A stretch of DNA of 64,000 bases from Candidatus Latescibacterota bacterium (GTDB taxonomy: Bacteria; Latescibacterota; UBA2968; UBA8231), in NCBI GenBank assembly GCA_964291625.2, contig OZ220089.1, positions 3,744,001 through 3,808,000 of the forward strand. Reading direction: 5' to 3'. The notes beneath the pieces are model-generated. The model worked only from the letters and a program-made list of their open reading frames with translations. It searched no databases and was not told the origin of the DNA. Positions 35,074 through 40,384 of the stretch are shown here, in pieces; the stretch's first letter is position 1, and every line of letters begins with the position of its first letter. Made by a program: the position numbers and the translations under genes.

Positions 35074-36834
35074 ATGCATCCCTATCGCACGCACACATGC
35101 GGCGAGCTCCGCAGGCATCACGCGGGCCGGACCGTTCGCCTGAGCGGCTGGGTCCACCGCAGGAGGGACCACGGCGGCGTGCTCTTCCTGGACCTGCGCG
35201 ACCACTACGGCATCACCCAGCTCGTGGTCTCTCCGGAGAGCGACTTCGCCGCCAATGCGGCCAGGGTCCCCCGCGAGTCGGTGATCCGCGCCGAGGGCGA
35301 GGTGCGCGAACGGTCTCCCGAGGCGGTCAACAGGGCCATGGAGACCGGAGAGGTGGAGATCGCCGTGGGCGGGCTGGAGGTGCTGTCCGCGGCCGAGCCG
35401 CTCCCCTTCCCGGTGGCGGAGGAGACCGAGACAGGGGAGGGCCTGCGGCTGTCCTATCGATTTCTGGACTTGCGTCGCGCCGGGCTGCATCGGCGGATCC
35501 AGCTCCGCTCGGAGGTGATCGCCAGCATCCGGCGGCGCATGACGGCGATGGGCTTCGCCGAGTTCCAGACCCCGGTGCTCACCAGCAGCTCGCCCGAGGG
35601 AGCGCGCGACTACCTCGTGCCGAGCCGCCTCTACCCCGGCCGCTTCTACGCCCTGCCCCAGTCGCCGCAGCAGTTCAAGCAGCTGCTGATGGTCTCCGGC
35701 TTCGACCGCTACTTCCAGATCGCGCCCTGCTTCCGCGACGAGGATGCCCGGGCCGACCGCTCCCCCGGGGAGCACTACCAGTGCGACCTGGAGATGGCCT
35801 TCGTCGAGCAGGAGGACGTCTTGGCCGTGGTCGAGGAGCTGTTCTCCGGTCTGTTCCGGGAGTTCACCGACTGGCAGGTGACCGCCCAGCCCTTCCCCCG
35901 TTTCTCCCATGCCGAGGCGATGCTGCGCTTCGGCACGGACAAGCCGGACCTGCGCTTCGGGCTCGAGATCCAGGACCTGTCACACATTTTCGCGGAATCC
36001 TCATTCAGAATGTTCCGGGGAATGGTCGAGAAAGGTGGGGTCGTGCGCGCCCTGTGCGTTCCCGGACTCGAGGCCCGGCCGCGCTCGCTCTTCGACGGTC
36101 TCGAGGCGTTCGTGAAGGACTCGGGCGGTCAGGGGCTGGCCTGGCTCATCAGCGGGGCTGAGCCCACGGGGTCGATCGCCGCGGCCCTGGAAGAGAGCAC
36201 GATCCAACGCATCACCGAGGCGTGCTCGGCCGGCCCGGGGTCGGCGGTCTTCCTCATCGCGGGATCGCCGGAGGAGGCGCCGAACCTGGCGGGACGGCTG
36301 CGCCTGCATCTGGCGGACCGGCTCGACCTGCGCCGGGAGGGGTGCTACGAATTCTGCTGGATCGTCGACTTCCCGATGTACGAGTGGGACGAGGAACGGG
36401 ACTGCGCCGCCTTCTCGCACAACCCCTTCTCCATGCCCCAGGGCGGGATGGAGGCCCTGGAGACGCGGCCACCCCTGGAGATCAAGGCGTACCAGTACGA
36501 CATCGTCTGCAACGGCGTGGAGCTGTCGAGCGGCGCCATCCGCAACCACCGTCCGGACATCATGTACAAGGCCTTCGAGATCGCCGGGTACCCTCGCCAG
36601 GAGGTGGAGCGCCGGTTCGGGTGCATGATCCGCGCCCTGCACTACGGCGCTCCGCCCCACGGCGGCATCGCCCCGGGCATCGACCGCATCGTCATGCTCT
36701 TGGCGGACGAGCTGAACATCCGGGAGGTGATCGCCTTCCCCATGAACCAGCACGCCCAGGACCCGCTCATGGGGGCTCCGGGGGAGGTCTCCGCCGAGCA
36801 GCTCCGAGAGCTTCACCTGGCGGTGCGGGATTGA
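35074..36834 (+). CDS. aspS: Aspartate--tRNA ligase, probably non-discriminating Asp/Asn type
   Basis: [57 protein letters not shown]. Confidence 0.97.
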
Positions 36835-36917
36835 CCGCCCCATCCCCCTTGCCACTGTTCCACACCCCCCTCGACCTTCGACCCCTCTCCCGCATGAACC
36901 GAGGAAGAAGGTGAGGG

Positions 36918-37450
36918 ATGACCGAAGCCCGAAAGACCGTCAGGCTGTACGAAGCCCTGGAGCTGCGGGCCGAGTACGACGGCCGCATCAAGACCCTGCG
37001 CGACTGCCTGCCCGAGTCGCGCCAGAACCGGGGGCTGTTCTCCCGGGACAACGACTCCTCGCGCCGGCCGGCTCCCGGCTTCAGCCTCTCCGGGGCGCGG
37101 GACCAGCTGCGCGCCCTCGAGTTCAAGCGCCGCAAGCTGAACGCGGCGATCCAGCGGGCCAACTTCGAGCACCGCCTGGAGCACGAGGGGGATGACCTGA
37201 GCCTCACCGAGGCCCTGGAGACGCGCAAGGCGCTCAACGAGCGCCTCGGGGAGCTGCACACGCAGGTCGTCGACTCCGCGTACGAGCGCGTCCTCCACAA
37301 GGAGGAGCGGGACATCGTCGAGGAGAGCGAGCTGCCCTACGCCGACTGCCTCACCCGGCTGGACGAGGCGCGCGTCGAGTTCCGGCGGCTCAACCGGCGG
37401 ATCCGGCGGCCTCCTTCGAAGTCGAGGTGGAGTTCGCCGACGAGCGGTAG
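36918..37450 (+). CDS. DIP1984-like helical coiled-coil protein, with an apparent 1-nt frameshift near 37410
   Basis: Two repeats: RLYEALELR...IQRANFE and SLTEALETR...IRR(A)SFEVEVEFADER-TAG (37448-37450) once one base is restored; as assembled it reads on to 37508. Confidence 0.65.
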
Positions 37451-37457
37451 CACCTCC

Positions 37458-37652
37458 GAACGGAAGAGACAGGGGAGCAAGCGCGACTGCGCCGGCGACG
37501 GCGCATAGCCCAGGAGCGGCGCGCACTGCGACGCGTGTCTCGGGGATGACAACCTACGGTCCGGCCAAGCCGCTCAACGACTCAGCGGCAGACCCCTGAG
37601 CACGGGCAGCCCCTCAGCGAAACAGCCACAGGGCTCCGCGTCTCTTCCGTTC
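37458..37652 (+). ncRNA. Candidate structured non-coding RNA (~195 nt); strand inferred
   Basis: Perfect 13-bp end-to-end helix plus nested helices and a GNRA-capped hairpin (see findings). Confidence 0.55.
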
Positions 37653-37864
37653 AAAGTCCGCACAGAAAGTCCCAACACCCGGCCCGCTCCGTCCGTCGTC
37701 ATGCAGGAGAGCCGGGGCCCGGATGGGGGGTCGCCGCGGCCCCGGCCGCACTCTTGCCATCGTTTGCAGGCCATCGCCCCGGGCCGCCTTGACACTGTTT
37801 CAGGGCTCCGGGCAGCTTCGATTCGTCCCGGCCAACAACCGTATCCTCAACCCGAAGGACGGCG

Positions 37865-40384
37865 ATGCACCGACTCATCGCGGTGCTGGCCGCCGCGCTC
37901 CTCTTCGCAGGGGCCGTGGGCGCCGGCGCCGACGAACAGCACTCTCACACGGACACCAGCGATGCCCGCATGGAGGGCTGGATGGCCCATCCCCAGCGCA
38001 CGGCCCGCGCCCTGCGGGCGGAGACGCCGCCGCGCCTCGACGGGGTCCTCGACGAGGAGGTCTGGCTGCGCGCCCCGGTTCACGAGGGGTTCACCCAGAG
38101 CGACCCGGACCAGGGCGAGCCGGCATCGCTGCGCACGACCTTCCAGGTGGCCTACGACGACGACGCCCTCTACATCGGCGGCATCTGCTACGACGATCCA
38201 GACAGCGTCACCGCCCGGCTGGCGCGGCGGGACGAGTGGCGCGAGCGCGACTTCTTCGAGGTCAGCCTCGACCCCCACCACGACCACCAGACGGGGGTCT
38301 GGTTCACCGTCGGGCCCTCGGGCTGGCTCGGGGACGGGATCCTCTACAACGACGAGGACTACGACGACGGCTGGGACAGCGTCGCCGAGGTGGCCACGGC
38401 GAGGCGCGCCGACGGCTGGAGCCTGGAGCTGAAGATCCCCTACCACGTCCTGCGCTTCGGCGAGCAGGAGACCTACACCTGGGGGATCAACGTCTTCCGC
38501 AAGGTCTCCCGCCGCGCCGAGTGGACGGCGTGGAGCTTCACGCCCCGGGGGGTCACCGGCTACGCCTCGCGCTTCGGACACCTGGAGGGGATCGAGGGCA
38601 TCCGGCCGCACCGCAGCCTCGAGGTCCTGCCTTTCGCCCTCGGCCGCGGCACCCTGTCGCAGGGAGCCGCCGGCGATAACGACCTGTTCTCCTCGGCCGG
38701 CGTCGACCTGCGCTACGGCCTGTCGTCCAACATCTCCCTCAACGCCACCGTCAACCCGGACTTCGGCCAGGTCGAGGGCGACCCGGCGGTGCTCAACCTG
38801 GGGGTATTCGAGACCTTCCTCCGCGAGCGCCGGCCCTTCTTTCTGGAGGGCATCCAGATCTTCGAGTCGCCCGGGCCGTTCATCGTCAGCATCAACAAGC
38901 CCTCCACCCTGTTCCACTCGCGGCGCATCGGCCGGGCGCCCTCCCGCTTCGACCTGCCCGACGACAGCGACGAGGTCGAGCGGCCGGAAAACACCACGAT
39001 CCTCGGCGCCGCCAAGATCTCGGGAAAGACCGCCGGGCGCACCGCCTTCGGCCTGCTCAACGCCGTCACCGGCCGCGAGCGGGCCCTCGTCGAACAGCGC
39101 CTCACCGTCGCCGAGACGGGCCTGGTCGACACGGTGCGCCGCCGCGTCGAGGTCGAGCCCCTCACCAACTACTTCATCGGCCGAGTGCAGCAGGATCTGC
39201 TCACCAGCTCCACCGCCGGGGCCCAGCTCACCGCGGTCAACGGCGCCGGCTTCGAGCCCGCCTACGTCGGGGCCGGGGACGTGCACCTCAGGTGGGGGGA
39301 CAACGCCTACCGGCTCTACAGCCGCTTCGCCGCCAGCCTCGCCGGGCAGGAGGAGGAGCGGGGCAGCGGCTGGGAGGGGGCCCTCTACTTCCAGAAGTCG
39401 GGGGGCGCCTTCGGCGGTCAGGCCTACATGGACGCCAACTCGCCCGGCTTCGAGGCCAACGACCTGGGCTACATGCGGCGCAACGACCGCATTCAGGCCG
39501 GCGTCCACGTCTACCACGACAGGCTCGACCCCTGGTGGCTGGCCCGCCGCTCCGGGTTCAACCTCAATGCCTGGACCCACTGGAACTTCGACGGCGAGCG
39601 CATCTGGCGGGGCGTCAACTTCAACACCTGGAACAACCTCCACAACTACTGGGGGTTCTGGATGGGCGTCAGCCGCAACCTCGCCGCCGTCGACGACCTG
39701 GTCACCCGCGGCGGCCCCCCGATGGTCTCACCGGCCAGCACCTGGATCGGCATGAACGTGTGGGCCGACGACCGCAAGCCGGTGAGCGGCCGGCTCTGGT
39801 CGAACCTCAGGTGGGGCCGGGGCGGCGACAACCTGGGCACGTGGGTGGGGTTCAACCTCGAGTTGCGCCCCATGTCGCGGCTGTCCCTGGAGGTCGGGCC
39901 GGGCTACGGCTACGACCGCAACTTCGCCCAGTGGGTGGAGAGCAGCGACGACGACGGCGACGGCGAGGACGACCGCTTCGTCTTCGGCGAGCTGGAGAGC
40001 CGCGTCCTCGAGGTCGGCCTGCGCGGCGACTGGGCCTTCACGCCGGCCCTGAGCCTGCAGCTCTACCTGCAGCCCTTCGTGACCACCGGCGACTACGGCG
40101 CCATCAAGGAGCTGGCGAGGCCGCGCTCGTACGAGTTTCTCCCCTACGACGGCCTCGAGGAGAACCCCGACTTCCACCGCCGCGCCCTGCGATCCAACCT
40201 GGTCCTGCGCTGGGAGTACCGGCCCGGCAGCACCCTCTTCGCCGTCTGGCAGCAGAGCCGGGACCGCGACTTCGACGGGGTCCGCGACCCCCGGTTCCGG
40301 CCCGCCGGCGACCTGACCCGCGCCTTCGCCGACGACGGCGACAGCATCTTCCTGATCAAGCTCAACCGCTGGTTCGGGCTGTAG
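37865..40384 (+). CDS. CBM9-like/DUF5916 outer-membrane protein
   Basis: Signal peptide, PRLDGVLDEEVW, GWSLELKIPY..LRF, NATVNPDFGQVE.D, ERRPFFLEG, LRWEYRPGS.LF.VW. Confidence 0.85.
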   Translation: MHRLIAVLAAALLFAGAVGAGADEQHSHTDTSDARMEGWMAHPQRTARALRAETPPRLDGVLDEEVWLRAPVHEGFTQSDPDQGEPASLRTTFQVAYDDDALYIGGICYDDPDSVTARLARRDEWRERDFFEVSLDPHHDHQTGVWFTVGPSGWLGDGILYNDEDYDDGWDSVAEVATARRADGWSLELKIPYHVLRFGEQETYTWGINVFRKVSRRAEWTAWSFTPRGVTGYASRFGHLEGIEGIRPHRSLEVLPFALGRGTLSQGAAGDNDLFSSAGVDLRYGLSSNISLNATVNPDFGQVEGDPAVLNLGVFETFLRERRPFFLEGIQIFESPGPFIVSINKPSTLFHSRRIGRAPSRFDLPDDSDEVERPENTTILGAAKISGKTAGRTAFGLLNAVTGRERALVEQRLTVAETGLVDTVRRRVEVEPLTNYFIGRVQQDLLTSSTAGAQLTAVNGAGFEPAYVGAGDVHLRWGDNAYRLYSRFAASLAGQEEERGSGWEGALYFQKSGGAFGGQAYMDANSPGFEANDLGYMRRNDRIQAGVHVYHDRLDPWWLARRSGFNLNAWTHWNFDGERIWRGVNFNTWNNLHNYWGFWMGVSRNLAAVDDLVTRGGPPMVSPASTWIGMNVWADDRKPVSGRLWSNLRWGRGGDNLGTWVGFNLELRPMSRLSLEVGPGYGYDRNFAQWVESSDDDGDGEDDRFVFGELESRVLEVGLRGDWAFTPALSLQLYLQPFVTTGDYGAIKELARPRSYEFLPYDGLEENPDFHRRALRSNLVLRWEYRPGSTLFAVWQQSRDRDFDGVRDPRFRPAGDLTRAFADDGDSIFLIKLNRWFGL

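Follow-up and report, generated by a model that had tools for sequence, protein, structure and literature searches.

The locus and its DIP1984-like gene

We analyzed a 64,000-bp stretch of a Candidatus Latescibacterota genome (contig OZ220089.1, positions 3,744,001 to 3,808,000; hereafter the window, whose positions are used throughout). On its + strand, a gene related to the DIP1984/DUF6847 family (36918–37450) is followed by a structured RNA of ~195 nucleotides (nt), which begins 7 nt after the stop codon and extends from the 5′ arm to the 3′ arm of its closing stem, P1 (37458–37652). The two are flanked by aspS (35074–36834) on one side and a DUF5916/CBM9 gene (37865–40384) on the other. 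The comparisons described below leave little doubt that this is a real structured RNA and that it is genetically coupled to the DIP1984-like gene, forming a two-part module.

The gene was assigned by its Pfam and NCBIfam matches. The open reading frame (ORF) of the window matched Pfam PF20935 (DUF6847) with an E-value of 3e-7 and 30.9 bits, above the cutoff of 27, and NCBIfam NF038048 (DIP1984_fam) with an E-value of 1.1e-7 and 32.1 bits, under the cutoff of 70. The sub-cutoff NCBIfam score marks the protein, as judged from its sequence, as a member of a divergent DIP1984 subfamily. Relatives of the gene encode ~177 amino acids (aa). The unshifted ORF spans 36918–37508 (+ strand), and the gene carries a 1-nt deletion near 37402–37405, where its relatives have an extra base. 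Intact relatives terminate in ..SFEVEVEYADE(R/Q)*, and their stop codon aligns with TAG 37448–37450. In addition, RNA-library contigs of a 95–99% identical relative contain an additional G after 37404. An earlier annotation of this DNA, made without database searches (the sequence-only reading), had proposed this TAG as the restored stop, and the shifted frame, the extra base of the relatives and the additional G show that it was correct. Given that both relatives and RNA-library contigs carry the extra base, we infer that the window gene is either a recent pseudogene or affected by an assembly indel.

Conservation of the RNA and its coupling to the gene

The element is present once in its own 5.9-Mb genome, as a BLAST search with 37440–37740 matched only itself. 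Within the genus, the region aligns at 85–90% in three genomes (G004, G006 and G002). In a genome from a different genus (G011), homology runs from ~36846 to exactly 37652, i.e., from a point shortly before the gene to the final nucleotide of P1. A further stem that had been noted at 37678–37716 lies outside the conserved element, as the G011 homology stops before it. A second family, represented by genus g17, is 65% identical over the gene, yet 90% identical over 37466–37513, and it has a compensatory change in the GNRA hairpin of the RNA. Two genomes have partial copies: G002 has lost 37168–37471, and G007 keeps only 37596 onward.

We built a covariance model (CM), R1, from nine sequences; the window element scores 194.6 bits against it. 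R1 detected one match per genome in 32 of the 132 genomes of the class, representing 6 of 31 genera. Among the 30 loci fetched from the class, 23 have an intact gene of 177–179 aa, and the stop codon falls −4 to +10 nt from the R1 start in 21 of these; the remaining two have distances of 31 nt and 150 nt. The remaining loci are the window with its frameshift, a gene cut by the contig end, a locus in which an in-frame 93-aa gene remnant precedes an intact RNA (G127), and deletion remnants that lack the gene as well as the 5′ portion of the RNA.

The association extends far beyond this class. A protein-based scan, with one genome per species, yielded 80 loci, and the 56 from other groups were searched with R1. 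The sequence-only reading had tied its claim of a noncoding RNA to conserved structure downstream of homologs of the protein, and such structure was found: a + strand R1 match adjoins the gene in 54 of the 56 homolog loci outside the phylum, and the pairs covary. A script classified the ORF as intact in 51 of those 54 loci; in 45 of these 51, the stop codon lies −15 to +12 nt from the R1 start. Going by record titles, the groups searched include Desulfobacterota, Spirochaetia, Acidobacteriota, Victivallales, Aerophobetes, Nitrospirae and Gammaproteobacteria, and protein identity across the many phyla is 35–64%. One locus (L123) runs into a contig edge, and in two others (L114 and L101) the 3′ end of the gene is missing along with the 5′ portion of the RNA.

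Deletions affecting both the gene and the 5′ portion of the RNA were seen in G002, G007, G080, G108, G086, L101 and L114. Broken genes retain an intact RNA, as in the window and G127, whereas an intact gene was found once with a truncated RNA and never without any RNA. The truncated case is a metagenome-assembled genome of Thermoanaerobaculia (L097:1501–2134), in which an intact 179-aa gene is followed by only the 3′ ~95 nt of the RNA; what remains is the repeat tract with the 3′ strands of P2 and P1, and the folded 5′ domain is deleted. Overall, the distribution of the sequences shows that RNA and gene share their inheritance, transfer and loss.

A scan of viral contigs with an 18-nt core pattern returned one match, which we consider to be due to chance, as it is inside a coding region and has neither a CM match nor an adjacent gene. 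A tblastn search of plasmids with a type-B protein gave no match.

Fold and covariation

The fold was evaluated using A6, an alignment of 38 non-redundant window-type (type A) sequences made with MAFFT; E-INS-i was also used for alignment. The pairs tested were those of P1, the outer P1 extension, P2, the GC/GC pairs, P3 and S1. In A6, 88.2% of the cells pair, compared to 35–44% when the 3′ partners are slid by 1–3 columns. Both sides change in 22 of the 28 pairs, and none of 500 shuffles attained the observed pairing or covariation; many of the A6 sequences are related, and these counts therefore overstate the number of independent events. The true helices could be decided upon because of these comparative data, in which P1, P2 and P3 covary strongly. 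Together with the CM matches, the covariation confirms the conserved, structured + strand RNA that had been proposed from the sequence.

The 5′ arm of P1 (37458–37470, + strand) is complementary to 37640–37652 at 13 of 13 positions, as originally noted. Its inner seven pairs are formed in 97.4% of A6 cells and five of the seven change on both sides, and the outer part of P1 covaries between families (GAACGG/CCGTTC in one, ATCCGA/TCGGAT in the other). P2 pairs GGAGC (37474–37478, + strand) with GCTCC (37633–37637), just where these strands had been reported; it is paired in 100% of the 38 sequences, with both-sided changes in four of five pairs. The P3 domain (37483–37509, + strand) consists of invariant GC/GC pairs (37483–84 with 37508–09) around a hairpin (37488–37505). 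The hairpin is capped in the window by the GNRA loop GCGA (37495–98) and in relatives by GUGA, GCGA, GCAA, GAGA or GUAA. All five top pairs of P3 change on both sides, and 95.8% of their cells are paired, so the GNRA hairpin, already recognized at this place from the single sequence, is among the strongly covarying parts of the fold.

Other helices of the sequence-only reading did not fare as well. CTGC/GCAG, an 11-bp helix and a GCCGCT/AGCGGC hairpin are complementary and appear in the minimum free energy fold, but are without covariation support. The GCGCG/CGCGC strands are complementary at the positions given for them, but are unconserved even inside the genus. The same lack of conservation within the genus applies to the 11-bp helix and the GCCGCT hairpin, and in the family the place of all three is taken by two pseudoknots.

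Pseudoknot 1 (37511–37538, + strand) is formed by S1, which pairs CAG 37511–13 with CTG 37526–28, and by S2 (37519–24 with 37533–38). The CAG belongs to the conserved UAGCCCAG and pairs with a CUG within the next hairpin. S1 covaries (CAG/CUG, CGG/CCG and AAG/CUU). In the rows of the alignment that were compared, the S2 stems vary in sequence and keep their complementarity; by analogy with these, the register given here for S2 of the window is the probable one. Pseudoknot 2 lies with the P6 hairpin in 37543–37564 (+ strand), where GGG (37543–45) and CCU (37553–55) enclose the loop AUGACAA. In the window, GAC of this loop (37548–50) can pair with GUC (37559–61) just before a conserved CCGG, which would give a helix of 3 bp at most. 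Among the 38 relatives, 22 have four loop nucleotides at the same place that are complementary to the four directly preceding CGG, and five covarying versions occur (GACG/CGUC, GAUA/UAUC, GGGA/UCCC, GAAA/UUUC and GGCA/UGCC). The partner is present in 27 of 38 sequences overall. Of seven shifted controls, six reached 7–14 of 38; the other one, which overlaps the P6 stem, also gave 27 of 38.

At the 3′ end are the strands of P2 (37633–37) and P1 (37640–52), in a region (37633–37652, + strand) whose stretch GCTCCGCGTCTC is nearly invariant across phyla. In many low-GC relatives the P1 3′ arm runs straight into a U-tract. There is none in the window, as had been noted, nor in other high-GC members. 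We assigned the RNA to the + strand because the GNRA loops, the tolerated G-U pairs and the downstream U-tracts fit this strand only.

The repeat tract

After pseudoknot 2 comes a tract of nine tandem units of 7–9 nt (37565–37634, + strand), each ending in AGC (or AAC, GAC, GGC). In type-A RNAs generally, the 3′ tract consists of 8–9 octamers in tandem, with AGC as their final triplet. Within the final 75 nt of the 38 type-A RNAs we counted 210 AGC triplets (66.6 expected), most often at a spacing of 8 nt (69 cases), with further cases at 15–17 nt (53) and 9 nt (17). The C/A-rich 3′ strand that was described for the window, with CAG, CAA or CAC every 6–12 nt, is thus a feature of the family. 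In a longer sister type, for which 12 RNAs of 225–238 nt were compared (proteins 32–42% identical), the motif is UAC/GAC (72 occurrences, 30.2 expected) and the spacing peaks at 7 nt (31 cases). The change from AGC every 8 nt to UAC/GAC every 7 nt indicates that motif and period shift with the protein clade.

Two RNAs of gammaproteobacterial type from the wider family of the window RNA (L124:2154–2384 and L128:2118–2348), and the L132 RNA (2040–2065), have a hairpin with the same form as a tRNA T-arm (GGCGGUUCAAUUCCGCC and GUGGGUUCGAGUCCCAC), each time placed just ahead of the repeats.

Proximity of the RNA to the gene raises the possibility of a purely cis-acting element of the 3′ untranslated region (UTR), i.e., a stabilizer, terminator or translation-coupled regulator that does not bind the encoded protein. 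In most loci the RNA starts 0–12 nt past the stop codon, so that a terminating ribosome would melt P1, and the U-tract after the P1 3′ arm in many members resembles that of an intrinsic terminator. However, an element of ~195 nt that forms two pseudoknots and a GNRA hairpin and keeps unpaired segments invariant goes far beyond what stability or termination would need, and it stays with a single gene family in phyla whose transcription machineries differ greatly. Moreover, the repeat motif and period vary with the protein clade, and the window and other high-GC members lack the U-tract. We thus regard a purely cis-acting role as unlikely. Complexity and conserved unpaired sequence are also typical of ribozymes and riboswitches, and the first base of one RNA-library contig lies no more than 3 nt from where P1 starts, a weak hint of a self-processing or ligand-sensing RNA linked to the gene by chance. 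Against this, no Rfam ribozyme or riboswitch matched, such contigs are blind to RNA ends, and a long unstructured periodic tract is not known from either group. We regard this explanation as very unlikely.

Known RNA families and other features

We compared the element with the 4227 families of Rfam 15. At the gathering score, no match fell on the element in a search of the whole 64-kb window. When the threshold was relaxed to E ≤ 10 for 37300–37900, only three spurious microRNA matches appeared, and at E ≤ 0.1 no match fell on the element in 15 related loci. The element therefore belongs to no family known to Rfam, the outcome that the sequence-only reading had regarded as favorable to its proposal.

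The same reading had suggested that size and closing stem also fit 6S RNA. Both RNAs measure close to 190 nt, and in both the two ends join in a long closing stem. However, 6S RNA (RF00013) is a universal rod with a central bubble, whereas the window element is an accessory RNA of hairpins and pseudoknots linked to a single gene. It has P1, P2, the GNRA hairpin, two pseudoknots and single-stranded repeats, and no central-bubble rod. Given this different architecture and the absence of an Rfam match at the gathering score or at E ≤ 10, we rejected 6S RNA. The paired ends are also reminiscent of the a1/a2 repeats of retrons, but no reverse transcriptase domain was found among 99 flanking ORFs of 54 loci, and the window module is flanked by aspS and the DUF5916 gene. 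For tRNA and tmRNA, ARAGORN predicted none within the element at any of 56 type A/B loci, and Rfam gave no match. A miniature inverted-repeat transposable element (MITE) or other repeat is contradicted by the single match in the 5.9-Mb genome and by one CM match per genome in the 32 positive genomes. A simple terminator was considered too; the window lacks a U-tract, and the Us of low-GC relatives follow a stem that closes a 170-nt insert.

A perfect 13-mer inverted repeat is, by itself, not rare in a GC-rich window: with a loop of up to 300 nt, there are ~1.9 per shuffled window and 6 in the real one. The covariation nevertheless rules out a chance origin. Taken together, the Rfam and ARAGORN results, the single copy, the flanks without reverse transcriptase and the covariation contradict a known RNA or non-RNA feature (6S RNA, tRNA or tmRNA, retron, MITE or chance inverted repeat), to which we assign a negligible probability; a simple terminator seems improbable as well.

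The protein family

Pfam PF20935 matches 38 of 39 members of the protein subfamily. The subfamily is rare, as only 286 of 1.84 billion cluster representatives matched at E ≤ 1e-3. We modeled the intact ortholog of G006 with AlphaFold2 from 39 homologs (predicted local distance difference test 89.8, predicted template modeling score 0.76). The predicted fold has two repeats of long helical hairpins plus small beta hairpins. The only clear structural relative of the model is 3kdq, a Corynebacterium diphtheriae protein whose annotation states no function (Foldseek E-value 2.8e-4, TM-score 0.65–0.77). In a VIA-align comparison with 3kdq_A, 151 of 152 residues aligned (Z 13.2, root-mean-square deviation 2.7), and the next match had a Z of 8.9. 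The model thus shares the two-repeat helical-hairpin build and the Pfam match of DIP1984/DUF6847, but canonical proteins of that family have ~150 aa and those of the window subfamily ~177 aa. A sequence-profile search of the PDB with alignment A3 gave nothing meaningful (best E-value 0.044).

Invariant residues of the subfamily include E12, E15, R17, N75, Q79, N82, R103, K104, K128, E129, R131 and R156, which might contact RNA. Among language-model neighbors of the G006 ortholog, after DUF6847, is a cluster automatically named "Siphovirus Gp157 family protein" (score 0.94), which may be a lead to a phage-related helical family.

The DIP1984 gene of small Acinetobacter plasmids is labeled "septicolysin" in some records and has been discussed as a putative thiol-activated cytolysin (PMC5559437). 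As the family fold is a 150-aa helical hairpin repeat like that of 3kdq, this label looks like a misnomer.

A second RNA class behind canonical DIP1984 genes

Another Latescibacterota genome encodes a canonical DUF6847 protein (L132, 176 bits), and further copies are on plasmids of Picosynechococcus, A. baumannii (L149) and E. faecium, including small Acinetobacter plasmids. Among the carriers is Picosynechococcus sp. PCC 7117, and of the control genomes that of Deinococcus radiodurans has a DUF6847 match. In L132 and the plasmid copies, the gene is followed by an unannotated gap of ~270–320 nt, each with repeats ending in UAC. These gaps contain an RNA of ~210–250 nt, located after the ~150-aa gene at L132:1933–2180, L148:1160–1420, L149:1163–1480 and L150:1151–1460, and also found among the metagenome loci L151–L230.

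We fetched 80 metagenome loci of canonical homologs, 72 of which have at least 330 nt downstream. The motif GAGGGYGGG is present in 68 of these 72, mostly 176–264 nt after the stop codon; upstream and coding regions totaling 84,443 nt contain a single occurrence. In an alignment of 39 canonical-class RNAs, all 28 predicted pairs have compensatory changes. The RNA has long-range stems, a T-arm (GGGUUCGAUUCCC), a D-loop-like AGUCGGUAG, a tract of repeats ending in NAC, and an invariant tail, GAGGGYGGG...GGGG (also written GAGGGUGGG...GGGG). Rfam at E ≤ 1 gave no match to the RNA in 11 canonical loci, where the only real matches were true tRNAs upstream, and R1 found no match on the RNAs of canonical DIP1984 loci. 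A single R1 match of 27 bits in L164 was rejected as an unrelated long palindrome. Given that R1 is blind to the canonical RNAs and that Rfam has no match, we consider them a separate class of RNA that occupies the corresponding place behind the gene.

The near-perfect long palindrome of L164 (1690–1790) consists of GAGAGACGC-like units and lies ~540 nt downstream of the canonical gene.

The canonical gene lies directly after a same-strand tRNA array in 14 of 64 loci (L194, L198, L200, L201, L203, L205, L209, L210, L211, L213, L215, L217, L219 and L162; upstream 700 nt), compared to 1 of 56 window-type loci. The array has the order Ala/Met-Thr-Asn-Lys-Ile-Ile(tat)-Gln, and in some loci tRNA-Gln follows the RNA. 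These loci are related, and the linkage may thus reflect a single lineage.

Genomic neighborhood and other features of the locus

At 54 loci, we scanned the longest ORF to the left and to the right against Pfam (99 proteins in all), and no recurrent partner gene emerged. Toxin-antitoxin and mobile genes are frequent in the flanks (BrnT, UPF0175, PIN, Gp49, DUF6036, YhcG and NYN), together with transposases of the IS200-like (Y1) and YhgA-like types; AAA_14/DUF4143 was found seven times.

These neighbors bear on whether the module is a selfish one, of a toxin-antitoxin-like or defense-like kind, in which the RNA repeats would sequester a harmful or active protein much as in type III systems. 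The patchy spread is in keeping with this (32/132 genomes and 6/31 genera in the class, many phyla at 35–64% identity), as is the presence of canonical relatives on small Acinetobacter plasmids. So is the finding that broken genes retain the RNA (the window and G127), with no intact gene entirely without it. On the other hand, PADLOC matched none of three proteins, the RNA is downstream of the gene and its repeats measure 7–8 nt rather than ~36 nt, and the predicted helical hairpin repeat fold is unlike a ToxN-like nuclease. L097 keeps its gene without the folded RNA domain, and the family member 3kdq was produced for crystallography, which would argue against strong toxicity. We therefore think it improbable that the module is of this kind, which would in any case be a particular outcome of a protein-RNA partnership and is compatible with one.

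A promoter-like motif, CCCTTGCCACTGTTCC, is located at the upstream edge of the module (36846–36861, + strand). It is conserved in G006, G002 and G011, and is kept in G011 although the flanks of that genome differ. A similar motif, CCCTTGACATTGTGAA, precedes the gene in G129 and G127. Another, CCTTGACACTGTTTCA, which resembles CCCTTGCCACTGTTCC, is located at 37789–37804, before the DUF5916 gene. These motifs may represent a lineage-typical promoter.

Public runs that hold this stretch are mostly labeled as sponge metagenomes. In one sponge metagenome DNA run (window 36700–37900; X2/X7/X21/X22), we found contigs of at least three module variants. The loose ends that precede 37458 and 37466 correspond to gene ends of the g14-like and g17-like kinds, so several Latescibacterota lineages appear to co-occur in the sample.

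A proposed partnership of protein and RNA

We propose that the RNA is the dedicated binding partner of the DIP1984-like protein, which the conservation and co-distribution of the two make probable. In its favor are also the lack of a recurrent third gene beside the pair, the repeat motif that changes with the protein clade, and the other structured RNA behind canonical genes. Gene and RNA would be transcribed together, with the ~195-nt RNA beginning a few bases past the stop codon. The folded 5′ domain (P1, P2, the GNRA-capped P3 and two pseudoknots) would supply identity and stability. By analogy to TRAP and CsrB, copies of the two-repeat protein might then sit side by side on the single-stranded AGC repeats. 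The activity of the protein could in this way be stored, switched or neutralized by the 3′ end of its own transcript. That several protein copies bind in register on the 7–8-nt repeats is suggested by their periodicity, and we put it forward tentatively, as a possibility somewhat short of even odds.

A number of points weigh against this proposal. The evidence from the single sequence is weak when taken alone, with modest folding z-scores (−2.0 for the + and −1.9 for the − strand), and the covariation counts are inflated by relatedness, as noted above. L097 keeps an intact gene, so the folded domain is no strict requirement at every locus with a surviving gene. Contigs of three RNA libraries from two studies cover the element (37457–37625, 37499–37682 and 37409–37842), a point in favor of its expression, but such contigs attest to presence in RNA libraries and are no proof of transcription, ends or abundance; contig depth, and gene stretches without contig cover, cannot be interpreted as expression levels. 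The archaeal carriers are four short contigs binned as archaea, a weak assignment. Finally, we know of no recognized RNA-binding role for the 3kdq fold.

A wider and more speculative possibility, which we consider rather doubtful at present, is that the whole DIP1984/DUF6847 family is an unrecognized RNA-partnered class, in which each gene has its own 3′ RNA, protein and RNA form an in-register ribonucleoprotein, and the role may concern tRNA or translation stress. Such a role is hinted at by the location of some canonical loci inside tRNA arrays, and by the triplets that end the repeats, which match codons read by GUN-anticodon tRNAs.

The structure of a DIP1984 family member has been available since 2009 (3kdq), and the conserved RNA provides the first concrete handle on the function of the family. 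The module spans many bacterial phyla, possibly archaea, and clinically common plasmids. It adds at least one large class of pseudoknotted RNA, with the unusual design of a folded domain joined to a periodic tract of 7–8-nt repeats. Should the protein indeed read these repeats, the two would assemble in a way that is new for proteins and RNA.

Comparison with known systems

A full-text literature search, which did not extend to the supplementary tables of RNA-motif surveys, found no paper tying DIP1984, DUF6847 or "septicolysin" to RNA. Given this and the absence of both RNA classes from Rfam 15, the module appears to be a new kind of gene-RNA module. It nevertheless resembles several known systems in part.

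The Ro60-Y RNA and YrlA systems have a structured noncoding RNA, with paired ends, beside the gene of its protein partner, and YrlA includes a tRNA-like domain. The modules described here also place an RNA with paired ends beside a gene, and the canonical-class RNA has a T-arm and the D-loop-like AGUCGGUAG. However, there is no Ro (TROVE) gene in the flanks and no Rfam match to Y RNA, and the RNA of the window is without a T-arm.

CsrB and RsmZ act as protein sponges, and the trp leader bound by TRAP presents 11 spaced GAG/UAG triplets. With these, the window RNA shares short, regularly spaced, single-stranded motifs, each of which possibly binds one subunit or copy of a protein. It differs in its period of 7–8 nt, in its AGC or UAC/GAC motifs, in having the tract on a pseudoknotted domain, and in its location at the 3′ end of the gene of its presumed partner; no sequence or protein homology to these systems was found.

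In type III toxin-antitoxin systems (ToxIN, CptIN and TenpIN), the antitoxin RNA is encoded upstream of the toxin and consists of ~36-nt repeats that are cut by the toxin nuclease. The likeness here is in the two-part module of a protein and a repeat RNA, the patchy, mobile spread and the neighborhoods rich in toxin-antitoxin genes. In contrast, the RNA of the window is located downstream of its gene and combines 7–9-nt repeats with a large folded domain, and the protein that it accompanies is not nuclease-like.

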